A stretch of DNA of 64,000 bases from Escherichia coli (lineage in GTDB: Bacteria > Pseudomonadota > Gammaproteobacteria > Enterobacterales > Enterobacteriaceae): NCBI RefSeq assembly GCF_050920415.1, contig NZ_CP169309.1; one strand, 5' to 3'. Positions 8,602-58,375 of this stretch are shown piece after piece. Under the pieces are notes generated by a model. That model did not search any database. It was not told the origin of the DNA and saw nothing but the letters and a program-made list of their open reading frames with translations. Every line of letters begins with the position of its first letter. Positions within the stretch are counted from its first letter, which is position 1. The translations under genes were made by a program, and so were the position numbers.

Positions 8602-9013
8602 GTTGTTTGTTTTCCCTTGAAGTCCTTAACGACAAATATCGTTATAAAAAAATGCCAAGCGACACGAGACTAATTACCTGGGCATGTTGAAACAATTCCT
8701 TAAGGCCAAATCTGTGGACTAACGCACAAAATTATATGCTGTGAGGATAATCTACCGCCGAGGCAAAACGAGTTCGAGATTACCCGATTGGTGCGGTCTT
8801 GGCGAGTGGTTTTACATGATTTTTTATAAGAAAAAGTGATACAGAAAGTTAATAAGCGGGATTGGTCAATTAAAGTACGATTGAGTGAAACGCATACAAT
8901 CCATTCATTTACTTAGGGAATGATTTTTGTGTTCGATGAAAGAAAGCAAAGGCGCACATCATCAGGAATATCCTTACTATAAAAATAAACCTGATGATGT
9001 TAATTACCGTGAG

Positions 9014-9727
9014 TTATTTGTTTTGGAAATGTTTGTTTTTTCCCGGTAGTGATTTGTCAAAAAAGGTGATTAATCGATCACTTAATGGCGTCAGCAACAT
9101 CCAGGGCAAACCAATCAATATCACGGTCATCGAACCAACAATGATGTCAGTAAACCAGTGTGCACCAATCATTACTCTGGGAAATGCAAAAACCACAAAA
9201 ATAATAAGGGCGATAAGGCCTGCGACTTTGCCGAAATAACGCCACATGAATGCCGAAAAAATAAGCAGCATCATGCCGTGATCGCCGGGAAAGCTGTCTC
9301 GTGAGGCATCTTTCGTGGGGATAGGGAGCAGTTCGCTGACGCGGTTAATATTGGCAAAAGTTAATGTTGGGCTGGCCCGTTTTACAGGAATTAATGCCTG
9401 TCCCAGTTGGTTTAAGACCACTGCAGTTAATAGCATGACGAGGCCAATAATCACGATACGTCGTCGGCCTGGGGCGTTTTCTTTCAGCCAGAAACTCAGC
9501 ATCAACATTCCCATTGCCAGCAGTGAACAACCGTCGAAGGCACGATTATTGGTCAATGCAACCAGCCACAAAAAGGCCTTACTTTCGACCAGTTTCTGAT
9601 TAAAAAAATAAAAAATATCCGCATCAATCGGCAACCAGAATCCATGATTAACGGGAATATACCAGGAAAGAAACAGCGCGAGGCCGACAATATTCAACAA
9701 CACTATTTGCGGCAAATTTTTAATCAT
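9014..9727 (-). CDS. lpxT: Lipid A 1-diphosphate synthase / undecaprenyl-PP phosphotransferase, PAP2 family
   Basis: ORF 9014..9763 trimmed to MIKNLPQIVLLN start (237 aa); polytopic membrane protein. Confidence 0.85.
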   Translation of the reverse strand: MIKNLPQIVLLNIVGLALFLSWYIPVNHGFWLPIDADIFYFFNQKLVESKAFLWLVALTNNRAFDGCSLLAMGMLMLSFWLKENAPGRRRIVIIGLVMLLTAVVLNQLGQALIPVKRASPTLTFANINRVSELLPIPTKDASRDSFPGDHGMMLLIFSAFMWRYFGKVAGLIALIIFVVFAFPRVMIGAHWFTDIIVGSMTVILIGLPWMLLTPLSDRLITFFDKSLPGKNKHFQNK

Positions 9728-9765
9728 ATTTTCTCTAATTATCTTACTGAAAAACGCAGGCAACC

Positions 9766-10752
9766 TTACGCGGTAGTCGCTAAACGAAGCTTCAACAGCG
9801 CGCTCTGCAAAGCATTCCAGTCAGCTTCGCTGCTGGAAATCAGCTCAATACGACTGTCCGGTGGAGCAACGTTTTGCGTTTCAATGTGCAGGTCATCGCC
9901 CTGACGGTTGATTCGCACCAGCCCTTCGGGAATACGCATCACGCCTTTGACGCGTTCCACCGGTGCAAGTCGCGCCCATTCCAGAATGCCAATGGTGTCG
10001 AATACCGTATCAGCGTCGAATATCCAGCCACAGGCCTGATGCCCTTGTCCACTGTTCAGACTGCGACGCCAGCGTTGATGCTCTGGCAGGCTTAACGCTG
10101 CTAACCCTTTTTTCACGCTATGCTGATGAGAATGCGCCGCGCTGGCGGGCAACTCGGCTAAATTGCGACGTGGCAAATCCAGAAGATGACCGTCAATTTT
10201 CCCATGTTCGCTGTGAATTAAATGCCGATCGCCACCATTTTGCTGCCACCAGCGCTGTAGCGCTTGCTCACTTTCGGGCGTCGCACGGTCGGATTTATTG
10301 GCGACAATAATGTCTGCGGCAGCCAGCTGGTCACGGAAGTTTTCATTGCTGGCGCTTTTTTCGTCCAGCAGCAAGCGTGGATCGAGAATGCACAACGTGG
10401 CGCGCAGATCTATCCACGGTTCATACACGGGCGCGGTTAAGAGATCGAGGATCTGTTTCGGATGGCCCAGCCCGGTCGGCTCTATCAACAAGCGGTCTGG
10501 TTTTCCCTGACGCAGTAAGGTATTCAACCCTACCTGCATGGGTAAACCATTAACGCAGCACATACAGCCGCCGGGGATCTCTTTCAACAATGCGCCGCTA
10601 TCGGCGAGCAAAGCACCATCAATTCCGACTTCCCCAAATTCATTAACCAGTACCGCCCATTTTTCGTTGGGATCTTTATGGGCTAACAGATGAAGAATCG
10701 ACGTAGTTTTCCCGCTGCCGAGAAAACCGGTGATGAGGTTGGTCCTGGTCAC
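9766..10752 (-). CDS. yeiR: CobW/COG0523-family zinc-associated GTPase
   Basis: 328 aa, P-loop GFLGSGKTT and CxCC motif GGCMCC. Confidence 0.9.
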   Translation of the reverse strand: MTRTNLITGFLGSGKTTSILHLLAHKDPNEKWAVLVNEFGEVGIDGALLADSGALLKEIPGGCMCCVNGLPMQVGLNTLLRQGKPDRLLIEPTGLGHPKQILDLLTAPVYEPWIDLRATLCILDPRLLLDEKSASNENFRDQLAAADIIVANKSDRATPESEQALQRWWQQNGGDRHLIHSEHGKIDGHLLDLPRRNLAELPASAAHSHQHSVKKGLAALSLPEHQRWRRSLNSGQGHQACGWIFDADTVFDTIGILEWARLAPVERVKGVMRIPEGLVRINRQGDDLHIETQNVAPPDSRIELISSSEADWNALQSALLKLRLATTA

Positions 10753-31759: not shown

Positions 31760-33739
31760 ATGTTTAGGTTGAACCCTTTCGTACGGGTCGGGCTGTGTTT
31801 GTCCGCTATTTCTTGTGCATGGCCTGTGTTAGCGGTCGATGATGATGGCGAAACGATGGTTGTCACTGCATCTTCCGTTGAGCAAAACCTTAAAGATGCA
31901 CCCGCCAGTATCAGCGTCATTACCCAGGAAGACCTGCAGCGAAAACCGGTACAGAATCTGAAGGATGTCCTCAAAGAAGTGCCTGGCGTACAACTGACGA
32001 ACGAAGGGGATAACCGTAAGGGCGTTAGTATTCGTGGTCTGGACAGCAGTTACACCCTGATTCTTGTCGATGGTAAACGCGTTAACTCCCGCAATGCCGT
32101 TTTCCGCCATAATGATTTCGATCTGAACTGGATACCTGTCGACTCCATCGAGCGTATTGAAGTGGTCCGTGGCCCGATGTCGTCGCTGTACGGTTCCGAT
32201 GCGCTCGGCGGTGTCGTGAATATCATCACCAAAAAAATCGGTCAGAAATGGTCGGGTACCGTTACTGTCGATACCACCATTCAGGAACATCGCGATCGCG
32301 GTGATACCTATAACGGTCAGTTCTTTACCAGCGGACCATTAATTGACGGCGTGCTGGGAATGAAAGCTTACGGCAGCCTGGCAAAACGTGAAAAGGATGA
32401 CCCACAAAACTCAACGACCACCGATACCGGAGAAACGCCGCGTATTGAAGGATTCTCCAGCCGCGACGGCAATGTGGAATTTGCCTGGACACCGAATCAA
32501 AATCACGATTTTACCGCTGGATATGGTTTTGACCGTCAGGATCGTGATTCCGACTCGCTGGACAAAAACCGCCTGGAACGTCAGAACTACTCCGTTAGCC
32601 ATAATGGGCGTTGGGATTACGGCACCAGCGAACTGAAATACTACGGTGAGAAAGTCGAAAACAAAAACCCTGGCAACAGCAGCCCGATTACTTCCGAAAG
32701 CAATACGGTCGATGGTAAATACACGTTGCCACTGACGGCGATTAATCAGTTTGTTACGGTTGGCGGTGAATGGCGTCACGACAAACTTAGCGATGCAGTA
32801 AACCTGACCGGAGGAACAAGCTCCAAAACGTCTGCCAGCCAGTACGCGCTGTTTGTGGAAGATGAATGGCGGATCTTCGAGCCGCTGGCGCTGACGACCG
32901 GCGTGCGTATGGACGATCACGAAACCTACGGTGAACACTGGAGTCCTCGTGCCTACCTGGTTTACAACGCCACCGACACCGTAACGGTGAAAGGGGGCTG
33001 GGTGACGGCATTTAAAGCACCTTCTCTGTTGCAACTTAGCCCTGACTGGACGAGCAATTCCTGCCGTGGCGCATGTAAGATTGTGGGTAGCTCGGATCTG
33101 AAACCTGAAACCAGCGAAAGTTGGGAGCTGGGGCTTTACTACATGGGTGAAGAAGGCTGGCTGGAAGGGGTTGAATCCAGCGTGACCGTTTTCCGCAACG
33201 ATGTAAAAGATCGTATCAGCATCAGCCGTACGTCTGACGTCAATGCTGCTCCGGGCTACCAAAACTTTGTCGGTTTTACAGCGGACGGTGTGCCAGTATT
33301 CAGCTACTACAACGTTAACAAAGCACGTATTCAGGGCGTGGAAACCGAACTGAAAATTCCGTTCAACGATGAATGGAAACTGTCGATCAACTACACCTAC
33401 AACGATGGTCGTGATGTCAGCAACGGCGAAAACAAACCGTTGTCCGATCTGCCGTTCCATACCGCTAACGGTACGCTGGACTGGAAACCGCTGGCGCTGG
33501 AAGACTGGTCATTCTATGTTTCTGGTCACTATACCGGGCAGAAACGCGCCGACAGCGCGACGGCTAAAACTCCGGGCGGTTATACCATCTGGAATACCGG
33601 CGCGGCCTGGCAGGTGACCAAAGACGTCAAACTGCGTGCGGGTGTGCTGAACCTTGGCGACAAGGATCTCAGTCGTGACGACTACAGCTATAACGAAGAT
33701 GGACGTCGTTACTTTATGGCAGTGGATTATCGCTTCTGA
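31760..33739 (+). CDS. cirA: TonB-dependent catecholate siderophore / colicin I receptor
   Basis: 659 aa ORF with signal peptide and C-terminal beta-barrel ending in aromatic residue. Confidence 0.95.
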
Positions 33740-33797
33740 TGCGAAGATGCCCGGCGTGGATCCCGCCGGGCATAATCCCAGAAATTCGCTTCTGGCT

Positions 33798-35120
33798 TTA
33801 TAACCGATGAAATTTTGCCAGTAAGGCCAGTGAAAATGTTGTCAGCAAAATGGTAATGACTGCGTAAATATACACTCCTGACCATTCCCAACTGTTTTTC
33901 ACCATAATAACTGGAAGCCCTGCCATTGCCGCGCCTAAATAACTAAACAAGCCCCTGAATCCAGTAATGGAACCTGCCGCATCTTTATGCGTAACATCAA
34001 GACACCCGACAGCGAATAACATATGCGGTCCATACAATGCAAACCCCATGATTGTAAACAGAATAGCCGTTAATGTGTAGGAGACGTCCTGCACCAGCGG
34101 TACGAGAACGATGCAAATACATAAAGCGATGGCAAAGATTAATCCTGTCATCCAGCGGTTACTTTTAAACATGAAATCGGACAAGTACCCCGCCAGTAAT
34201 CCCCCAGCAAGTCCACCTGCTTCAAACCAGGATATAATGGAGTTCGCTTTAATCAGGCTCCAGTTATGAACCTGAGAATAATAAATTTGTGGCCAGTCAT
34301 TGAGGATGGTGCGTGCAATATAGACCGACATATCCCCGAGGATAATGAGCCAAACTAATGGGTTGGTAAGAATATATTTAACGAATATTTGCCAAAAACT
34401 GAGATCAACCGGACTTGCTTTAACTTGTGCAAGTTCTGTCGGGTCGTTGCGCCACTTACCGACGTTAGGCAAACCGAGCGTGCCGGGACGATCTTTTATC
34501 GTAAACAAGGCAACAATCCCCATAATCAGTGAGATTACACCCGGAACATAAAAGCCCATCTTCCAGCTGCCACTAAAAGCAATAGCAAAGCTTGTCAGGA
34601 GAGGCGCAAGACTACCGCCAATATTATGCGCAGCTTCAACAACTGCCCACCAGCGTCCGCGTTCATTTTTCGAGAACCACGAGGCCATAATTTTTGCCAT
34701 TGGCGGAAAACTGGTACCCTGGAGAATAGCATTAAGGCTATACAGGATATAGAACGCAGCAACGCTGTCTGAAAAACCGAAAAGAATGTTAACAATACCG
34801 ACGCCAATAAGTACGGGGCCAGTCATCGCTCGTGGGTTAATTTTATCGACTAACATGCCACCTACAAACTTCATGGAGCCATAAAGAATGTAAAAGACCG
34901 ACGACATGATAGCGAAATCTTGTGCGGTTAATGACGTATCCGTTAACATCGCTGGCATGGCCGCAGAGAAATTCTTGCGGGTTAAGTAAAATACGGCATA
35001 AGAGATAAATACAGAGGTGATGATTTCAATGCGAAATTTTTTATAAGTATGATCAACTTCTTCTTTTGGTTTGACCACCGGTTGGTCGGCCTGGCTGAAA
35101 ATAAATTTTTTCAAACTCAT
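33798..35120 (-). CDS. Organophosphate:phosphate antiporter-family MFS transporter (GlpT/UhpT/PgtP-like), accessory
   Basis: 440 aa 12-TM ORF; AT-rich codon usage; RBS aaggaaa before ATG 35118-35120; no counterpart at this position in the K-12 order. Confidence 0.7.
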   Translation of the reverse strand: MSLKKFIFSQADQPVVKPKEEVDHTYKKFRIEIITSVFISYAVFYLTRKNFSAAMPAMLTDTSLTAQDFAIMSSVFYILYGSMKFVGGMLVDKINPRAMTGPVLIGVGIVNILFGFSDSVAAFYILYSLNAILQGTSFPPMAKIMASWFSKNERGRWWAVVEAAHNIGGSLAPLLTSFAIAFSGSWKMGFYVPGVISLIMGIVALFTIKDRPGTLGLPNVGKWRNDPTELAQVKASPVDLSFWQIFVKYILTNPLVWLIILGDMSVYIARTILNDWPQIYYSQVHNWSLIKANSIISWFEAGGLAGGLLAGYLSDFMFKSNRWMTGLIFAIALCICIVLVPLVQDVSYTLTAILFTIMGFALYGPHMLFAVGCLDVTHKDAAGSITGFRGLFSYLGAAMAGLPVIMVKNSWEWSGVYIYAVITILLTTFSLALLAKFHRL

Positions 35121-35152
35121 TGTGAGTTTCCTTTTCTGTGAACCTTATGGCG

Positions 35153-36040
35153 CTATAATTTTTCTTCTATAAAAAAGAGAAGCGACTCGAAACCATTAAA
35201 ATTAATCTGGTCAGCAATTTTTTCCCGGGTTTTAGATTTTGCTTTCCATGCCACGCCATTTCCGGCATGCAAAAGCATAGGAATATCATTGGCACCATCT
35301 CCACAGGCAATGATGTTTTCACGGCAGATAGCTAACTCTGTCGCTAAATTTATCAGGGTTTGCTTTTTCTTTTCTGCATTCATAATAGGTAAGGTAATTG
35401 TATCAGTTAACAGATCTTCCTTAATGCGCACAGAGTTAGAAAATGCAAAATCAAGTTGATATTTTTCCTTCAATCGCTCAGTAAAAATATCCAAACCTCC
35501 AGATATAATTGCCGTCTTGAATCCTTTTTCTTTTAGTATGGGAAGAATAGTTTCAAGACCTGGTGAAAGAGTCATCTGTTCACAAACTTGATGCAATATA
35601 TCTTTATGCGTTCCTTTAAGCATGGCAATTCGCCGGGTAAAACTGGTATCAAAATCGATTTTCCCTTCCATCGCTTCACGGGTCAGTGCGGTGATTTTTT
35701 CAGAGATGCCGAGTCTACGGGCTATTTCATCGACACCTTCTTCTTCAACAAAGGTGGAATCCATATCAAAGGCAATAATTCCCTGATCCGGCAAGACCCT
35801 GGGTTTACGGAAAAAATCAAACTGATGATTATCAGCACGGTGACGTAAACCAGCATAAAAAGCAGGGTTGGTAACATCATCTGGTAATACTAGCTTTAGA
35901 TACTCTTTATTTATTTGCCCACTGTAATTCGTTGTTAGCGAAAACACCGAGGGGGAAATCTTTAAATGTTGCAGATAATCTTCCAGACATTTTTGGGTGA
36001 TGTCGATGCCTGTTGGCGACAAGAAATAAATAATCGTCAT
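35153..36040 (-). CDS. HAD-superfamily phosphatase, phosphoserine phosphatase (SerB)-like
   Basis: 295 aa; motifs FDMDSTF and GDGANDIPM aligned to E. coli SerB catalytic core; strong RBS aaggag. Confidence 0.7.
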   Translation of the reverse strand: MTIIYFLSPTGIDITQKCLEDYLQHLKISPSVFSLTTNYSGQINKEYLKLVLPDDVTNPAFYAGLRHRADNHQFDFFRKPRVLPDQGIIAFDMDSTFVEEEGVDEIARRLGISEKITALTREAMEGKIDFDTSFTRRIAMLKGTHKDILHQVCEQMTLSPGLETILPILKEKGFKTAIISGGLDIFTERLKEKYQLDFAFSNSVRIKEDLLTDTITLPIMNAEKKKQTLINLATELAICRENIIACGDGANDIPMLLHAGNGVAWKAKSKTREKIADQINFNGFESLLFFIEEKL

Positions 36041-36250
36041 TTACCGCTCCTTTTTATCTGCAATGATTATAATAAGATTTCATAGAGGCTGATGTATCTG
36101 ACAATCACAGTTGTGAATGTTAAATAAAAGATAAAAAAGTACTTTTTTTGATACTTTGAAATAATAAGATACTAAAAGTACCATTTTTGATATCTTTACC
36201 AGGATATAAAGAATAACTATTTTTCAACGTTGAAGGAATCATTTAAAAAT

Positions 36251-37603
36251 ATGGAAAGCTGCATAGATATATTCAAGATAGTTATTGGTCCATCCAGTTC
36301 CCGCACAGTCGGGCCAATGCGTGCGGCTTATAATTTTGTGTCACAATTGAAACAGCAAGAAATGTTACCTTTGTTGCGGAAAATTGATGTCGAACTTTAT
36401 GGTGCGCTGTCATTAAGCCGCAAGTGCCATAATGTTGATGTGGCGATTTATCTCGGTTTGCAAGGACACTTACCTGACAGCGTTGACATTCGCATGGAAA
36501 TGTCCGCCATCAGGCGTGCAGAAACTGAGGCGACGCTGGAAGTTATGCCTGGTGTCAACGTCAGTGTATCCATTCTTTCTAATCTACAAGCGCATCCGGG
36601 GCACCCTTATGCGATGACATTTCGTGCCAGAGATGACTGGTTTACACTTTATGAAGAAACCTGGTTTTCTATCGGCGACGGTCAAGTGCTAAAAGCAGGA
36701 GAGGCGATTATTCCTCCATCAGTCACTCCACATCCTTTTGAATTCCAGAACGCAAACGAATTATTAAAACTTTGTCAGCAAAATGGATTATCTGTCGCGG
36801 CATTAATGATGAAAAACGAACTGCACTGCCAGACAGCAGCTTTTTTGCATGACGATCTTCATAAAAAATGGGAAGTAATGAAGGATGCGGTTTATCGCGG
36901 GATGCATACAGAAGGATTACTTCCAGGTCCGTTTCAGGTTAACCGTCGTGCCTGTGCTTTATATAAATCGTTGCAGTCAAAGGGGTTTTCCAATGACTTC
37001 CTGACTACGCTCAATTGGGTCAATACTTTTGCCATTGCGGTGAGCGAAGAAAATGCTGCGGGTGGACGTGTCGTGACAGCACCCACCAACGGCGCGAGCG
37101 GTATTATCCCGGCTGTACTGTGCTGGTATGATAAATTCATTCACGAGCTTGATACATACTCCGTTACCCGCTTTTTACTGACCGCTGGTGCCATCGCCAT
37201 TCTGTTCAAAAAAAATGCCTCTATTCTGGGTTCTGAAGTTGGATGTCAGGGGGAAATAGGTGTTGCCAGTTCAATGGCGGCAGCAGGATTAGCAGAACTT
37301 ATGGGCGGGTCAGTGGCTCAGGTACTTAGCGCGGCAGAAATTGCGATGGAGCATCATTTAGGTTTGACCTGTGATCCAGTTGGCGGGCAGGTACAAATTC
37401 CTTGTATTGAACGAAATGCTATTTCAGCTGTGAAAGCTATCAACGCAACGACGATGGCGTTGAGTCGCATAAGCGAGCCGTGCATTACACTGGATGAGAT
37501 AATTTCCGCGATGTATGAAACCGGAAAGGATATGAGCGCTAAATACCGTGAAACTTATCATGGCTGTCTGAGCAAATTGCAGCCAAGAAAAAAGGATGCG
37601 TAA
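36251..37603 (+). CDS. L-serine dehydratase (iron-sulfur, single-chain SdaA type)-like
   Basis: ORF track starts at TTG 36230; ATG 36251 gives [17 protein letters not shown] resembling the SdaA N-terminus; 450-457 aa. Confidence 0.7.
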
Positions 37604-37604
37604 G

Positions 37605-37994
37605 ATGAAATATAATACGATGAATAACAACGAAATTATTTTATCACTGTGCGCTCGCATTAAAGAAACGCGTATCTCATTATCATTGACCCAACAGCAG
37701 TTAGCCGAGCGTGCATTGGTGGGCATAGCAACGGTCAAGCGGATTGAAAAGGGGGGAAGTTTAAATCTTGATACTCTCATTTCTCTTCTGCGCGCGCTGA
37801 ATAAATTGCAAAATCTCGATGCCATATTGTTCGAAGCAGAAATGCGTAATTTCAACGAAAATAGTTCCAGCGGCGAAGGGGCAGGGCGACTACAGGTACG
37901 CCAGCAACTGACAGATTTAAACCAGAAGTCTCCAGCCCCGCACGCAGATGACCATAATTTTAGTACGGCGCTGGAAAATACCCTCTGCTGGTGA
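37605..37994 (+). CDS. Small XRE-family helix-turn-helix regulator
   Basis: HTH segment LSLTQQQLAERALVGIATVKRIEKG; alternative ATG 37596 overlaps the dehydratase stop; stop abuts the yeiG stop. Confidence 0.55.
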   Translation: MKYNTMNNNEIILSLCARIKETRISLSLTQQQLAERALVGIATVKRIEKGGSLNLDTLISLLRALNKLQNLDAILFEAEMRNFNENSSSGEGAGRLQVRQQLTDLNQKSPAPHADDHNFSTALENTLCW

Positions 37995-38864
<870 letters not shown>

Positions 38865-52111: not shown

Positions 52112-52205
52112 TTAATTCGTAAAACGTGCTACCGATCACATTAAGAATTCTCAGCATAGTTGAATTACAGGGAAGTAACATCGGGCGAGTGCCCAGTTCA
52201 GCACA

Positions 52206-53114
52206 CTAATTCTGCTGTAAAAAGTGCAGAAACTGACTTAAAGCATAAGAAGGCGTTTCGTTATTACGCCAAAACACACCGACGCTGCCTTTCTGTTCAA
52301 TCTTTGGCAGGTTGAGGATCACCAGTTGCCCCTGGCTGGCATAACGTTGCGCCAGGCGTAATGACAAAATAGAGATCATATTGCTGCTTTGTAACAGGTT
52401 GGTACTGACGTTCATCGACGCCGACTCAATCGTGTTTTCTGGCAGCATCACGCCGTGGTCTACCAGCGCATTATCAATGCTGATGCGGATGGGGGTACCT
52501 GTCGGCCAGACTATCCACCGCCAGTTAGCAAGATCATTCCAGCTGAGGGTGGCGTATTTCGCCAGTGGATGCTCAGGACGGGCGACAAAGCATACCGGCT
52601 CGGTGTAGAGCACGCGATAATTCAGCGGCAGCTGCAACGCGCGACCGCCAATTCGCCCAACCACCACATCGATAGAACCTGCCAACAGATCTTGCAGCAA
52701 TGGGGTCATCACCTTCTCTTCGATATTCAGGTGTAGAGTTGGCATCTCCTTGAGCAAATGCAAAATCGCCTGGGATACGCAGTCAGTGGCGACGGGAGAA
52801 CAGCCAATTTTCAGACTGCCGACCAGTCCACCTTGTTTAAAGCGAGCCAGTTCATATTGCGATCTTTCCATGTCATTGATTAACCGTTGGGCATGTTGCA
52901 ATAACAATTTGCCGCCTTCGGTCGGACGAAGCCCGTTGCTGTGCCGCTCAAAAAGTGTGAGTCCGATCTCATCTTCCAGTTGTGACAACCATTTCGAAAG
53001 CGCGGGTTGGGTGATATTCATCATCCGTGCGACATGGGTCAGATTACCCTGTTCACCCAGCGCCACCAGCATTTGCAGGTGATGTAGTTTTAGTTTTTGC
53101 GCCCAGTTCGCCAT
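52206..53114 (-). CDS. mhbR: LysR-family regulator of the gentisate/3-hydroxybenzoate cluster
   Basis: ORF 52206..53162; start at MANWAQKLKLHHLQ (ATG 53112-53114) preceded by GGAGG; divergent from the catabolic operon; symbol by analogy to Klebsiella mhb. Confidence 0.65.
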   Translation of the reverse strand: MANWAQKLKLHHLQMLVALGEQGNLTHVARMMNITQPALSKWLSQLEDEIGLTLFERHSNGLRPTEGGKLLLQHAQRLINDMERSQYELARFKQGGLVGSLKIGCSPVATDCVSQAILHLLKEMPTLHLNIEEKVMTPLLQDLLAGSIDVVVGRIGGRALQLPLNYRVLYTEPVCFVARPEHPLAKYATLSWNDLANWRWIVWPTGTPIRISIDNALVDHGVMLPENTIESASMNVSTNLLQSSNMISILSLRLAQRYASQGQLVILNLPKIEQKGSVGVFWRNNETPSYALSQFLHFLQQN

Positions 53115-53240
53115 TTGCCATAACCTCCAGGTTATCTCTCTGCCCGAAATGCCATTGTACATCTCATCTCTTTAATCACATTATCGCAACATATACAAAA
53201 CAAAAGAAACATCTACCTTACCTGCACTGAGGCATTTACT

Positions 53241-54599
53241 ATGACTCAACGACGTGATTTACAAGCACTTATCGATGCCGCTCCGGTCGGCAAGATGCAG
53301 TGGCGCGTTATCATCTGCTGTTTTCTGGTGGTAATGCTCGATGGTTTTGACACCGCGGCTATCGGCTTTATCGCCCCTGATATTCGCACTCACTGGCAAC
53401 TCACCGCAGGCGATCTCGCCCCGCTTTTTGGTGCGGGTCTGCTGGGTTTAACGGCAGGCGCACTGCTTTGTGGCCCGTTGTCTGACCGCTTTGGCCGCAA
53501 ACGGGTGATAGAGCTATGCGTCTTTTTATTTGGCGCGTTAAGTCTCGCCTCTGCGTTTTCACCAGATCTGCAAACGCTGGTATTACTGCGTTTTCTCACC
53601 GGCCTGGGGCTTGGCGGGGCGATGCCGAACACCATCACCATGACCTCGGAATATCTGCCTGCCCGTCGCCGGGGCGCGCTGGTGACGCTGATGTTTTGCG
53701 GCTTTACGCTGGGTTCGGCGTTTGGCGGGATTGTCAGCGCACAGCTGGTGCCGGTGATTGGCTGGCACGGCATTCTGGTGTTGGGGGGCGTGTTACCGCT
53801 GATGCTGTTTGTCGCACTGCTGGTAGTTCTGCCGGAATCGCCACGCTGGCAGGTGCGCCGCCAGCTACCGCAGGCGGTGATTGCGAAAACCGTCAGCGCC
53901 ATCACCCGCGAGCGTTATGTCGATACCCACTTTTATCTCATTGAATCAGCCTCCGTTACAAAAGGCAGCATTCGTCAACTGTTTATGGGACGTCAGTTAC
54001 CCATTACGTTGATGCTTTGGGTGGTGTTCTTTATGAGCCTGCTGATTATTTACCTGCTCTCAAGCTGGATGCCAACGCTGTTGAACCATCGCGGCATAGA
54101 CCTGCAACACGCGTCCTGGGTCACCGCCGCGTTCCAGATTGGCGGTACGTTGGGCGCGCTGGCGCTGGGCGTGCTGATGGATAAGTTCAATCCTTTCCGC
54201 GTGCTGGCGCTGAGCTATGCCGTAGGCGCTGTATGCATCGTGATGATTGGCTTAAGCCAGGATGGATTATGGCTGATGGCGCTGGCGATTTTCGGCACCG
54301 GCATTGGCATTAGCGGATCTCAGGTGGGGTTGAACGCGTTGACCGCAACGCTCTACCCAACGCAAAGCCGCGCCACGGGCGTGAGCTGGTCAAACGCCGT
54401 AGGCCGCTGCGGCGCGATTGTCGGCTCGCTTTCTGGCGGCCTGATGATGGCGATGAATTTCTCTTTCGACACCCTGTTTTTCATTATCGCTGTGCCCGCG
54501 GCGATCAGTGCGGTGATGTTAAGCCTGCTGATCACCGTGGTTCGCCAGTCGACCTCTGTCCCTGACTCACTGCCTCGCGCAGGCGTTGTGAACGAATAA
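53241..54599 (+). CDS. mhbT: MFS aromatic acid (3-hydroxybenzoate/gentisate) transporter
   Basis: 452 aa 12-TM MFS; first gene of operon. Confidence 0.65.
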
Positions 54600-54610
54600 G
54601 GAGCATCCTA

Positions 54611-55639
54611 ATGACTGATAACAATCAAAAAAGCCGCGAGCAATTTTATCAGCATATTTCCGGGCAAAACCTGACCCCGCTGTGGGAGTCACTGCACCAC
54701 CTGGTGCCGAAAACGCCCAACGCCAACTGTGCGCCAGCGTACTGGAATTATCAGGAGATCCGCCCGCTGCTGCTGGAGAGCGGCAGCCTGATTGGCGCGA
54801 AAGAAGCTGTGCGTCGTGTGCTGGTACTGGAAAACCCGGCGCTGCGCGGGCAGTCTTCCATTACCGCGACTTTATATGCCGGTTTGCAACTGATCATGCC
54901 GGGCGAAGTGGCACCGAGTCATCGTCATAACCAATCGGCGCTGCGTTTTATTGTTGAAGGCAAAGGGGCATTTACCGCCGTTGATGGCGAACGCACGCCA
55001 ATGAATGAGGGCGATTTTATCCTGACCCCACAATGGCGCTGGCACGATCATGGTAACCCTGGCGACGAACCGGTTATCTGGCTCGATGGACTGGATCTGC
55101 CATTAGTGAACACTCTGGGCTGCGGTTTTGCCGAAGATTACCCGGAAGAGCAACAACCGGTCACGCGTAAAGAGGGGGATTATCTGCCGCGTTATGCCGC
55201 CAATATGTTGCCGCTGCGCCATCAGACGGGGAACTCCTCACCGATCTTTAACTATCGTTATGACCGTAGCCGCGAAGTGCTGCACGATTTAACCCGCCTG
55301 GGCGATGCCGACGAGTGGGATGGCTACAAAATGCGCTACGTCAACCCGGTCACCGGCGGCTATCCGATGCCGTCGATGGGCGCTTTCCTGCAACTGCTAC
55401 CGAAAGGGTTCGCCTCCCGCGTGGCGCGTACCACTGACAGCACTATCTACCATGTGGTGGAAGGTAGCGGACAAGTCACCATCGGCAATGAAATCTTCAC
55501 CTTTAGTGCAAAAGATCTCTTTGTGGTGCCGACCTGGCACGGCGTGTCATTCCAGACTACGCAAGATACCGTTTTATTCAGTTTTTCGGACAGACCGGTA
55601 CAAGAAGCCCTGGGGCTGTTCCGCGAAGCGCGTTATTAA
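54611..55639 (+). CDS. mhbD: Gentisate 1,2-dioxygenase (bicupin)
   Basis: 342 aa; length and two-cupin layout typical of gentisate dioxygenases. Confidence 0.7.
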
Positions 55640-55654
55640 TTTGGGAGAGAGAAA

Positions 55655-56356
55655 ATGACTCAATATGTATTCGAACCACAAGCGCCCGTTACCGTACCGG
55701 TTGTTGGCAGTGATGAACAATTCCCCGTGCGCCGCGTTTACTGCGTCGGGCGTAACTATGCTGCCCACGCCCGCGAAATGGGCTTTGATCCGGATCGTGA
55801 ACCCCCCTTCTTCTTCTGCAAACCAGCAGATGCCGTTGTTCCGGTCGCCGCTGGCGAAACGCTGGCGCTGCCGTATCCGGCGCAGACCGATAACTATCAT
55901 TACGAAATTGAACTGGTGGTGGCGATTGGTAAAAAGGGCAGCGATATCCCACTGGAAAAGGCCCATGAATATGTCTGGGGTTATGCCACAGGCCTTGATA
56001 TGACTCGCCGTGACCGTCAAATGGAAATGCGTCAGATGGGCCGCCCGTGGGAAATCGGCAAAGCATTTGATCTCTCGGCCCCCATCGCACCGCTGCACAA
56101 AGCCAGCGAAACTGGCGGTATTGATAACGCACCTATCTGGTTACAGGTTAACGGTGAAGATCACCAGCGCAGCGATATTCGCCATCTCATCTGGTCGGTG
56201 AATGAAACCATCAGCTACCTGTCAGGCTTCTTTGAACTGCAACCGGGCGATCTAATCTTTACCGGTACGCCGGAAGGGGTTGGCCCAGTAGTCAAAGGTG
56301 ATGTGATCACGGGCAACGTCGAGGGCTTAACCCCTATCGCGGTGAAGATCGTCTGA
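55655..56356 (+). CDS. mhbH: Fumarylpyruvate hydrolase (FAH family)
   Basis: 233 aa FAH-fold size; position after the dioxygenase. Confidence 0.65.
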
Positions 56357-56361
56357 GGTGC

Positions 56362-57009
56362 ATGATGAAGCTGTACAGTTTTTTTAATAGTTCAGCATCG
56401 TACCGGGTACGCATTGCGCTGGCGCTGAAAGGCATTAATTACCAGACCGAAGGGGTGAATATCCGTATTGGTCGGCAAAATGAACTGGCCTATCGGCGGA
56501 TGAATCCTGTCGGGCTGGTGCCGACGCTGCTGACTGACGAGGGCGAGTCACTCGGTCAGTCGCTGGCGATTATTGACTGGCTGGATCGTCACTACCCGCA
56601 AGTTCCGCTGGTGCCGCAGGAAGAACCGGCCCGCAATAAGGTGCTGGGAATTGTCTATGCCATCGCTTGTGATATTCATCCATTGAATAACCTGCGCGTG
56701 CTGCGCTATCTGACCGAAGAGCTGAACGTCAGTGAAGAAGAGAAAAAACGCTGGTATGCGCACTGGATCCAGCAAGGGTTAAGCGCGGTGGAACAGCTAC
56801 TGCGCCAGAGCCAGTCGGGGCAATTTTGTGTGGGTGAGACGCCGACGCTGGCAGACTGCTGCCTTGTTCCGCAGTGGGCGAACGCGCTACGTATGAACTG
56901 CGATCTGAGAGGATATCCGCGCTGCAAAGCGGTGTACGACGCCTGCACACAACTGCCAGCGTTCATTGCCGCAGCGCCAGAAAATCAACAAGATAAAATT
57001 TCAGCCTGA
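56362..57009 (+). CDS. mhbI: Maleylpyruvate isomerase (GST zeta-like)
   Basis: 215 aa GST-like ORF; adjacent ATG at 56365. Confidence 0.65.
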   Translation: MMKLYSFFNSSASYRVRIALALKGINYQTEGVNIRIGRQNELAYRRMNPVGLVPTLLTDEGESLGQSLAIIDWLDRHYPQVPLVPQEEPARNKVLGIVYAIACDIHPLNNLRVLRYLTEELNVSEEEKKRWYAHWIQQGLSAVEQLLRQSQSGQFCVGETPTLADCCLVPQWANALRMNCDLRGYPRCKAVYDACTQLPAFIAAAPENQQDKISA

Positions 57010-57023
57010 CCAGGAGAACCATA

Positions 57024-58217
57024 ATGACTAAAGTGACACGCGCAGTAATTGTGGGAGGCGGGATCGGCGGTGCGGCAACTGCGCTGTCACTGGCCCGCCA
57101 GGGGATCAAAGTGGTGCTGCTGGAAAAGGCGCATGAGATCGGTGAGATTGGCGCAGGTATCCAGTTGGGGCCAAATGCGTTTTCGGCGTTGGATAGTCTT
57201 GGTGTTGGCGAAATCGCCCGCCAACGTGCGGTATTCACCGATCACATCACCATGATGGACGCGGTGAACGCCGAAGAAGTGGTGCGTATTGAAACCGGGC
57301 AGGCCTTTCGTGACCATTTCGGCGGCCCTTACGCGGTGATCCACCGCGTTGATATTCATGCCTCGGTGTGGGAAGCGGTACTGACGCATCCGGACGTGGA
57401 ATATCACACCTCCACCAACGTCGTGGATATTCGCGAGACGGAAGACGATGTCACCGTGTTTGACGATCGCGGCAATAGCTGGAGCGGCGATATTCTGATT
57501 GGCTGTGACGGTGTGAAATCAGTGGTGCGCCAGAGCTTATTGGGCGATGCGCCGCGTGTCACCGGACATGTGGTCTACCGTGCGGTTATCGATTGTGCCG
57601 ATATGCCGGAAGATTTGCGCATTAACGCACCGGTACTGTGGGCGGGGCCGCATTGTCACCTGGTGCATTACCCTTTGCGCGGCGGCAAGCAGTATAACCT
57701 GGTGGTAACATTCCACAGCCGCCAGCAGGAAGAGTGGGGCGTGAAGGATGGCAGTAAAGAGGAAGTGCTCTCTTACTTTGAAGGGATTCACCCCCGTCCG
57801 CGCCAGATGTTGGATAAACCGACTTCATGGCGACGCTGGTCAACCGCTGACCGTGAACCGGTGGCGAAGTGGGGAACGAAGCGCATAACGCTTGTGGGCG
57901 ATGCGGCCCATCCGGTGGCGCAATATATGGCGCAGGGAGCCTGTATGGCGCTGGAAGATGCAGTAACGCTGGGTAAGGCGCTGGCGCAGTGTGAGGGTGA
58001 TGCGGCGCAAGCCTTTGCGCTGTATGAGTCGGTACGAATTCCGCGCACCGCGCGCATCGTCTGGTCGACCCGTGAAATGGGGCGGGTTTATCACGCCGCA
58101 GGGGTAGAACGTCAGGTACGTAACCTGCTGTGGAAAGGGAAATCGCAGGCAGAGTTTTATCGCGGCATGGAGTGGCTGTACGGCTGGAAAGAAGATAACT
58201 GTTTGCAACCACGCTGA
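57024..58217 (+). CDS. mhbM: 3-hydroxybenzoate 6-hydroxylase (FAD monooxygenase)
   Basis: 397 aa; FAD fingerprint VGGGIGGAATAL; GDAAH motif. Confidence 0.7.
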   Translation: MTKVTRAVIVGGGIGGAATALSLARQGIKVVLLEKAHEIGEIGAGIQLGPNAFSALDSLGVGEIARQRAVFTDHITMMDAVNAEEVVRIETGQAFRDHFGGPYAVIHRVDIHASVWEAVLTHPDVEYHTSTNVVDIRETEDDVTVFDDRGNSWSGDILIGCDGVKSVVRQSLLGDAPRVTGHVVYRAVIDCADMPEDLRINAPVLWAGPHCHLVHYPLRGGKQYNLVVTFHSRQQEEWGVKDGSKEEVLSYFEGIHPRPRQMLDKPTSWRRWSTADREPVAKWGTKRITLVGDAAHPVAQYMAQGACMALEDAVTLGKALAQCEGDAAQAFALYESVRIPRTARIVWSTREMGRVYHAAGVERQVRNLLWKGKSQAEFYRGMEWLYGWKEDNCLQPR

Positions 58218-58375
58218 GCACTTCTTCACCCAATCAGGCGCACGGGCGGTCCCCTCGCCCCTTCGGGAGAGGGTTAGGGTGAGGGAAAAATCTTGCCCGA
58301 ATTAATCAGTAAGTCAGTTTGTCTGCAAACACCAGAGGCGCTAACATAGCGCCTCATTTTTTTGCGGGTGATGAT

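Follow-up and report, generated by a model that had tools for sequence, protein, structure and literature searches.

The DNA analysed here is a 64,000-nucleotide stretch of Escherichia coli (contig NZ_CP169309.1), called the window below, and our subject is a block of four intact genes which lies in it between cirA and yeiG, at positions 33,798-37,994, and whose four proteins carry generic automatic names in public databases. It is proposed with moderate confidence, from sequence comparison, that these genes form two operons which together serve the catabolism of a phospho-amino acid taken up from outside, most likely O-phospho-L-serine. The first-pass annotation of this DNA had assigned coordinates to the four open reading frames (ORFs), and these were found to be correct (for the start of the regulator see below): RefSeq has the same four genes in E. 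coli MFDS1022581 (NZ_CP169399.1), which is 100% identical across the region. The genes and the elements at the borders of the block are the following.

33798-35120, minus strand: MFS transporter of the organophosphate:phosphate antiporter (OPA) family, 440 amino acids
35153-36040, minus strand: HAD-IB phosphatase of the SerB type, 295 amino acids (RefSeq name 'phosphoserine phosphatase SerB')
36251-37603, plus strand: single-chain [4Fe-4S] L-serine dehydratase homolog, 450 amino acids (RefSeq name 'L-serine ammonia-lyase')
37605-37994, plus strand: XRE-family helix-turn-helix (HTH) regulator, 129 amino acids (alternative start 37596)
33747-33773: GC-rich hairpin ATGCCCGGCG-TGGATCC-CGCCGGGCAT, an inverted repeat on which cirA and the transporter gene converge and which marks the left border of the block
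31760-33739, plus strand: flanking gene cirA
37995-38831, minus strand: flanking gene yeiG, stop codon at 37995-37997

The order cirA-yeiG, which had been given for K-12 as adjacent and convergent, was verified: in K-12 the two convergent genes are separated by 31 bp only, and the block is absent from there. A partly homologous cirA-proximal hairpin is kept at the empty K-12 site, and the last yeiG codons differ in the junction alignment. The right edge is as sharp as it had been described, since the stop codon of the regulator (37992-37994) directly touches that of yeiG, and on the left the hairpin is probably a bidirectional terminator. The block is also more AT-rich than its surroundings, in agreement with the first impression: the GC content of the transporter, phosphatase, dehydratase and regulator genes is 43.8, 38.7, 46.1 and 44.9%, compared to 50.8-53.6% in the flanking lysP, cirA, yeiG, folE and yeiB, and the minimum of the sliding-window GC fraction (0.34) falls within the divergent intergenic region. 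No tRNA gene was found at the block, no direct repeats flank it, and the annotated genes include no recombinase, which bears out the reported lack of integrase, transposase and tRNA. The phosphatase and transporter genes are 32 nt apart, a scan detected no terminator-like site between them, and they are probably co-transcribed.

The transporter matches the GlpT structure 1PW4 with an E value of 5e-69. Its residues R48, K84, R270 and H165 are conserved and align with R46, K82 and R275 of UhpT and with H165 of GlpT, so that the protein has both arginines essential in the OPA family (R46/R275 in UhpT, R45/R269 in GlpT) together with the phosphate-site Lys and His. With UhpT/UhpC, GlpT and PgtP (TC 2.A.1.4) it shares the fold, the length and these phosphate-site residues, furthermore the logic of an antiporter encoded beside the enzymes which consume the imported organophosphate; however, it stays below the cutoff of every subfamily model, it is at most 45% identical to these proteins, and it differs from them in a Thr/Arg pair and in the residues Glu162 and Asp263. 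The model scores are 426 bits against a cutoff of 564 for UhpC (NF008661), 343 against 408 (TIGR00881) and 217 against 750 (NF047787) for PgtP, 279 against 633 (TIGR00712) and 266 against 748 (NF008433) for GlpT, and 198 against 497 for UhpT, and the identity to E. coli GlpT is 31%. A place in the glycerol-3-phosphate or hexose-phosphate clade, which would be at odds with the uptake of phosphoserine, can be dismissed, since the protein is below all NCBIfam subfamily cutoffs and has Thr/Arg at the positions of UhpT 388/391.

The best NCBIfam match being the UhpC receptor subfamily, with an identity of 39-41% to UhpC proteins, the protein might be thought a UhpC-like sensor and not a carrier. 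We regard this as extremely improbable, considering that the UhpC score is below the cutoff, that no uhpAB genes and thus no UhpA or UhpB partner are present nearby, that the sole regulator of the locus is a cytoplasmic XRE protein, and that the selectivity position is occupied by Arg here and by Val in UhpC. The assignment as a carrier is preferred, and its clade can be delimited well: proteins of at least 64% identity include those of Escherichia, Salmonella, Citrobacter, Gallibacterium (a poultry-associated genus) and Photobacterium lutimaris, beyond which there is a lone metagenomic relative at 53% and then UhpC-like proteins at 45% or less, from which the members at 68% identity or more are set apart by a sharp gap. 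The cluster of the transporter at 90% identity (6,223 members) also includes Salmonella proteins of 291-295 amino acids named SerB, probably as a clustering artefact, therefore its member count overstates the number of transporter sequences.

In UhpT an uncompensated cation at position 391 changes the selectivity from glucose-6-phosphate to phosphoenolpyruvate (PEP) or 3-phosphoglycerate, according to a passage of PMC12483993 which cites Hall 1999 and Hall & Maloney 2001. The Asp388-Lys391 pair of UhpT is replaced by Thr386/Arg389 in the window protein, which leaves the cation at 391 uncompensated, therefore the clade bears the signature of a C3 phospho-carboxylate carrier. Additionally, two acidic residues are specific to the clade, namely Glu162, three residues before His165 (Asn elsewhere), and Asp263, seven residues before Arg270 (Tyr or Asn elsewhere); UhpC, UhpT and GlpT all lack acidic residues at both positions. 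His366 is likewise specific, the others having Gln or Val. We suggest Glu162 and Asp263 as candidates for binding the ammonium group of phosphoserine, and the transporter is predicted to represent a new OPA subfamily, a phosphoserine:phosphate antiporter.

Arg389, as the determinant linked to PEP and 3-phosphoglycerate selectivity, would equally be expected of a PgtP-like carrier for phosphoglycerate, PEP or another amino-free C3 phospho-carboxylate, in which case the enzymes of the block would be loosely tied to the transporter or would act on a derived product, and the neighbourhood of the 53% relative (P0014), which adjoins a 2-hydroxyacid dehydrogenase gene and not a phosphatase, could be quoted in its favour. 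We nevertheless hold such a carrier to be unlikely. Both PgtP models were missed (343 vs 408 and 217 vs 750 bits), 3-phosphoglycerate and PEP enter glycolysis directly and could be used without a phosphoserine phosphatase or a serine dehydratase, and the clade-specific E162 and D263 would be left unexplained. P0014 itself is without E162 and has Lys, not Arg, at the position of 389, and SerB-type genes accompany the transporter in two contexts which are unrelated to each other. The phosphoserine antiporter is thus retained as the preferred assignment.

Some further observations were made on relatives of the transporter. P0014 (L006, 1993-4385, contig SRR10083284_15365) carries Lys at the position of UhpT 391 and no Glu162, it is encoded divergently from the 2-hydroxyacid dehydrogenase gene with no adjoining phosphatase, and it may be a member of a sister subfamily with a different C3 phospho-acid as substrate. 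Purine genes adjoin OPA transporters in three unrelated genomes: in P. lutimaris (L004, 2464-5636) genes of a xanthine/uracil permease and an adenine deaminase stand upstream of the transporter, in Gallibacterium (L017, 5526-6830) a xanthine permease gene stands upstream of it, and in E. coli K-12 (L050, 1-3168) adeD adjoins uhpT. This proximity may be coincidence or old synteny.

The phosphatase scores 205.8 bits with the SerB model TIGR00338 (cutoff 144.15) and 196.9 bits with NF008350, the equivalog of the E. coli-type SerB, whose cutoff of 413 is not reached because residues 80-288 alone match. The distinct N-terminal domain of 80 amino acids lies outside this match, nevertheless it is included in the full-length match (E 8.5e-117) to PDB entry 4EZE, which is listed in PDB just as a 'haloacid dehalogenase-like hydrolase'. 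We take 4EZE to be a structural-genomics structure of the ortholog from Salmonella Typhi, and the literature searched yielded no paper about it (EFI-501419, t0658). In the alignment to the phosphoserine phosphatase (PSP) of M. jannaschii, 1F5S, the DxDST and GDGAND motifs and the residues at E20, M43, F49 and R56 are kept, the last four of which bind the phosphoserine/serine moiety in the published PSP structures. The enzyme is therefore like the biosynthetic SerB in its catalytic core, its motifs and its phosphoserine-contact residues, but it differs in the N-terminal 80 residues and in standing in a catabolic-looking operon with a transporter. A cytoplasmic phosphoserine phosphatase is predicted.

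The coupling of this transporter subfamily with SerB-type enzymes is seen outside the block as well. In P. lutimaris the transporter ortholog (68% identity) has another SerB-type gene behind it, in the same orientation, and no adjoining dehydratase. The product of this SerB-type gene is 35% identical to the window phosphatase and scores 243 bits with the SerB model, so that it provides an independent link of the transporter subfamily to SerB-type enzymes. The pairing of the window antiporter with a phosphatase implies that the imported phosphate ester would be hydrolysed and not fed to glycolysis.

The dehydratase gave 547 bits with TIGR00720, the model of the single-chain iron-sulfur L-serine ammonia-lyases (cutoff 345), and remained below the cutoffs of two enterobacterial L-serine ammonia-lyase equivalogs (511 vs 873 and 465 vs 942 bits). 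It matches the L-serine dehydratase of Legionella (4RQO) with E 9e-109, and the three cluster cysteines and the equivalent of His61 are conserved. In the Legionella enzyme His61 is the proposed catalytic base, the alanine mutant of which is inactive, and a Cys in the C-terminal tail ligates the fourth iron and acts as an intrinsic inhibitor (PMC12647591). The window enzyme has the motifs GPSSSRT and LSLSRKCH and is without the C-terminal GGLAIKV..C tail. These characters were shared by all 15 homologs of at least 67% identity (GPSSSRT, LSLSR(K)CH, tail absent), whereas GPSSSHT is found in each of the 105 remaining homologs sampled, none of which exceeds 54% identity; 93 of the 105 have LSLTG(K/R)GH, and the tail is present in all ten whose C-termini were inspected. 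Where these motifs lie with respect to the active site was assumed from the Legionella structure.

The subfamily forms one cluster among 1.84 billion representatives clustered at 50% identity, its next match is 51% identical, and only one further representative with the Arg was detected (P0162, 49% identity). Compared with SdaA, SdaB and TdcG, the window enzyme has the same two-domain single-chain architecture, the three cluster cysteines and the catalytic His, but it is at most 54% identical to them, has GPSSSRT, has LSLSRKCH in place of LSLTGKGH, and lacks the Cys tail; the pairing of a transporter with a dehydratase is also known from the sdaCB and tdc operons. The earlier description of the enzyme as SdaA-like is accordingly right with respect to the family, while an ordinary SdaA it is not, being a distinct paralog with changes beside the active site.

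The second occurrence of the Arg-type dehydratase gives some insight into the origin of the module. P0162 is encoded on a high-GC metagenomic contig of 4.2 kb (L052, 1-4193; ERZ27239121 k141_158846), downstream of a large NAD-glutamate dehydrogenase gene which offers no clue to a phosphorylated substrate, and immediately downstream of it there is a full-length homolog of the XRE regulator (34% identity). The pair of dehydratase and regulator accordingly predates the four-gene module and has a wider distribution, and the module itself looks like the union of two older pairs, the transporter with a SerB-type enzyme as in Photobacterium and the Arg-type dehydratase with an XRE regulator as on this contig.

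The peculiarities of the dehydratase have a bearing on the substrate. The same design might serve a phospho-amino acid other than phosphoserine (O-phospho-L-threonine, O-phospho-D-serine and 4-phosphohydroxy-threonine are examples), with a dehydratase that has been altered to suit the amino acid released; a paralog with two added basic residues and a Cys near its active-site motifs and without the autoinhibitory tail would fit this, and so would the fast evolution of the phosphatase (dN/dS, the ratio of nonsynonymous to synonymous divergence, up to 0.37, and 58-63% identity to Salmonella/Citrobacter). Since the residues aligned with the phosphoserine contacts of M. jannaschii PSP are all conserved, and the dehydratase passes the L-serine ammonia-lyase model by a large margin (547 vs 345), we assign a low probability to this variant. 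Another thought is that the GPSSSRT dehydratase acts on a phosphorylated compound directly, by beta-elimination of phosphate, with the phosphatase as a bypass or safety valve. All 15 members do gain positive charge around the active site through the change of His to Arg in SSS(H/R)T and of Gly-Lys-Gly to Arg-Lys-Cys beside the catalytic His; on the other hand, these changes may merely compensate for the lost C-terminal tail, a dedicated and conserved SerB-type gene would be redundant, the distant GPSSSRT enzyme of the metagenomic contig has no phosphate-related neighbour, and we know of no precedent. Direct elimination of phosphate is in our opinion very unlikely, and hydrolysis of phosphoserine followed by deamination of L-serine remains the preferred route.

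The fourth gene codes for a regulator with a Pfam HTH_3 domain (PF01381, residues 19-66, E 3.5e-9). The first-pass annotation had its start overlapping the stop codon of the dehydratase gene, which needs correction: the most likely start is ATG 37605 and not 37596, one base past the TAA at 37601-37603. This start, also the choice of PGAP, is preceded by an AAGGA Shine-Dalgarno sequence 8 nt upstream and yields the N-terminus MKYNTM, which is common to a distant homolog. The regulator is coupled translationally to the dehydratase gene. The elements detected between the two divergent gene pairs are listed here.

36041-36250: divergent regulatory region, 210 bp, about 34% GC
36136-36153, plus strand: operator-like site 1, AAAGTACTTTTTTTGATA, imperfect palindrome GTAyy-N6-GATAy
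36175-36192, plus strand: operator-like site 2, AAAGTACCATTTTTGATA, overlapping sigma-70-like hexamers upstream of the dehydratase gene

The two sites are copies of the 18-nt AAAGTAYYNTTTTTGATA standing 39 nt apart, start to start, as a direct repeat (D1), and each contains GTAyy-N6-GATAy. This pattern has two matches in the whole window, both of them here, compared to 0.01 expected by chance. Both sites have been kept in E. coli, E. whittamii, Salmonella and Citrobacter in the midst of sequence that has diverged. Two further elements are invariant in the alignment of 10 taxa: ATTATAAT at 36066-36073, which on the minus strand reads as a -10 box and precedes the phosphatase ATG by 26 nt, and ATCACA at 36104-36109. 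Promoter-like matches are located at 36156-36184 and 36187-36214, and inspection by eye of the intergenic region gave no convincing CRP or FNR site. We infer from the conserved operator-like sites that the four genes are co-regulated, and that the XRE protein may bind both palindromes and repress one or both operons; a transposon-sequencing (Tn-seq) comparison concerning STM2195, the HTH gene of Salmonella LT2, is a weak hint in favour of such a repressor.

These elements can be assembled into the following scheme. The OPA transporter would bring in phosphoserine in exchange for cytoplasmic inorganic phosphate, and the SerB-type phosphatase, on the strength of its conserved catalytic and substrate-contact residues, would hydrolyse it in the cytoplasm to L-serine and phosphate, the latter being available to drive the next exchange cycle. 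The iron-sulfur dehydratase would convert serine to pyruvate and ammonium, so that phosphoserine could serve as a carbon and nitrogen source. The XRE protein would bind the two palindromes, as the phylogenetic footprint suggests, and probably repress both operons, the repression presumably being relieved by the substrate or the product. The sequence of import, dephosphorylation and deamination with phosphoserine as its simplest substrate had been put forward as a guess, and it agreed with every sequence-level test that was run, with the substrate still to be regarded as predicted.

It should be emphasized that several points weigh against this scheme. The substrate is deduced from homology and gene neighbourhood, and the uncompensated Arg of the transporter suits phosphoglycerate or PEP equally well as phosphoserine. 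The dehydratase differs from the 105 ordinary enzymes in the His to Arg change of the loop, in the changes beside the catalytic His and in the missing Cys tail, therefore its substrate or its regulation may differ from those of ordinary L-serine dehydratases. The identity of the phosphatase is only 58-63% between Escherichia and Salmonella/Citrobacter, which indicates relaxed constraint or drifting specificity. The Gallibacterium transporter (77-82% identity) stands alone among housekeeping genes, and on the 4.2-kb metagenomic contig the dehydratase-regulator pair occurs without transporter or phosphatase, thus the four genes are not an obligatory unit. Finally, the promoter-like (sigma-70) matches are no commoner than in shuffled sequence, and the same is true for the terminator scan.

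Of 5,426 complete E. coli genomes, 89 (about 1.6%) carry the block, always on the chromosome and once per genome, with every copy examined sitting at the cirA-yeiG site, and the E. coli alleles are 94.9-100% identical to the window. The same four genes, with order and site unchanged, are present in Escherichia whittamii, in Salmonella enterica (the subspecies arizonae and diarizonae among them) and in at least 8 Citrobacter species; in these genomes yeiG-folE border the block at one end and lysP at the other. A scan with one genome per species gave no match in the other Escherichia species, which appear to be without the block. The description of the block as an accessory module consequently holds within E. 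coli, but not elsewhere: in Salmonella, Citrobacter and E. whittamii it has long been established at this very site.

Between the window and E. whittamii, the synonymous divergence (dS) of the transporter, phosphatase, dehydratase and regulator genes is 0.55, 0.61, 0.60 and 0.29, and that of lysP, cirA, yeiG and folE is 0.34, 0.51, 0.60 and 0.36. Because the values are similar in the block (0.29-0.61) and in the flanks (0.34-0.60), the block has co-diverged with its surroundings. A recent horizontal insertion was rejected: the characters of a mobile genomic island (tRNA, repeats, recombinase) are lacking, the site is constant, the synteny extends across genera and dS is like that of the flanks. 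We also considered whether the divergence of the flanks from K-12 is special to the island, which it is not, as the window is 94-98% identical to K-12 wherever it can be aligned over the whole 64 kb; the strain therefore comes from a divergent lineage. In view of the co-divergence and of the same-site residence in Salmonella, Citrobacter and E. whittamii, the rarity of the block in E. coli is better explained by loss than by gain, that is, by an old resident of the locus which most E. coli would have lost; re-acquisition by homologous recombination from an Escherichia-like donor is a less probable alternative.

All four genes are under purifying selection, dN/dS being 0.02-0.05 for the transporter, 0.11-0.14 for the dehydratase, 0.08-0.16 for the regulator and 0.15-0.37 for the phosphatase, with no internal stops; decaying pseudogenes were thus rejected, these values being far below 1. 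In two E. coli genomes (NZ_AP027963.1 and NZ_CP172867.1, hits H59 and H60) the module is interrupted by the insertion sequence IS1 and about 45% of the block aligns, which means that erosion of the locus continues in E. coli. One could go further and see in the E. coli block a non-functional remnant on its way to loss, pointing to its presence in only about 1.6% of the complete genomes, to the at least two copies disrupted by IS1, to the elevated AT content and to the fast-evolving phosphatase. This is highly improbable to our mind, since each allele examined has its four ORFs intact, dN/dS is 0.02-0.37, and alleles with up to 5% divergence retain both the reading frames and the operator-like sites; a functional module, lost from most E. 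coli, is the explanation which we prefer.

Two observations concern the neighbours of the block. yeiG is unusually divergent, with 90.6% nucleotide identity to K-12 compared to 95-98% in the neighbouring genes, and its dS between the window and other block-bearing E. coli is 0.41-0.50, compared to 0.60 between E. coli and E. whittamii; a recombination hotspot, or an old haplotype beside the block, may be the cause. In most Citrobacter (L010, L011, L013-L015, L021 and L023, at about 8700-10700) the neighbour of the transporter is not cirA but the gene of another TonB-dependent receptor, 35-39% identical to CirA and in opposite orientation, the module and lysP being retained.

The locus of Salmonella LT2 is orthologous and syntenic (yeiG-HTH-dehydratase-phosphatase-transporter-cirA), STM2195 being the HTH gene. 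The remaining numbers, going by the gene order, are presumably STM2196-STM2198 in LT2, and the Typhi tags t0657-t0660. Protein identity between the window and Salmonella is 92% for the transporter, 73% for the dehydratase, 75% for the regulator and 64% for the phosphatase, compared to 84-96% for the flanking core genes, and the GC content of the Salmonella copy is higher than that of the window block. In the literature searched, the locus tags were mentioned incidentally, in Tn-seq or single-nucleotide polymorphism studies, with no paper on the function of the Salmonella locus and none on phosphoserine transport or catabolism by such a system. According to one mention, mutants of STM14_2709 grow better under iron restriction, and from the order of the locus tags we suppose that this is the dehydratase gene.

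The known OPA systems are under the control of UhpABC, PgtABC and GlpR, and the window module differs from them in its XRE regulator. The only such antiporters listed in a 2023 publication on how Salmonella uses organophosphates are GlpT, UhpT and PgtP (PMC10715179), to which the window-type protein would add a fourth, unrecognised in that listing. Each part of the module comes from a well-known family; what would be new is the predicted substrate class, the catabolic SerB paralog and the diagnostic dehydratase paralog. It is possible, and we put it forward tentatively, that this is the first dedicated bacterial system for the import and catabolism of a free phospho-amino acid, made up of a phosphoserine-specific antiporter, a phosphate-recycling SerB paralog, a tail-less Arg-type dehydratase and an XRE repressor. 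Host or food material rich in phosphoserine, such as casein, egg-yolk phosvitin and phosphatidylserine head groups, can be named, speculatively, as a source of the substrate; the occurrence of the transporter in Gallibacterium, a genus associated with poultry, may be mentioned in this respect.

If the proposal is true, phospho-amino acids would be a new substrate class for a textbook transporter family, a function would be given to an automatically annotated four-gene locus which all examined genomes of Salmonella and Citrobacter carry at one and the same place, the orphan structure 4EZE would gain a physiological role, and a new, easily recognised paralog of the iron-sulfur serine dehydratases would be defined. 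As most E. coli are without the locus and the examined Salmonella and Citrobacter have it, it is a candidate for a niche-differentiating nutrient pathway among gut Enterobacteriaceae, and its presence/absence polymorphism in E. coli would provide natural isogenic-like comparisons.

A second segment absent from K-12 was noticed in the window at 52148-58330 (about 6.2 kb). It is a 3-hydroxybenzoate/gentisate catabolic cluster with genes for a LysR regulator, an aromatic-acid MFS transporter, gentisate 1,2-dioxygenase, a fumarylacetoacetate-hydrolase-family protein, a maleylacetoacetate-type isomerase and 3-hydroxybenzoate 6-monooxygenase.

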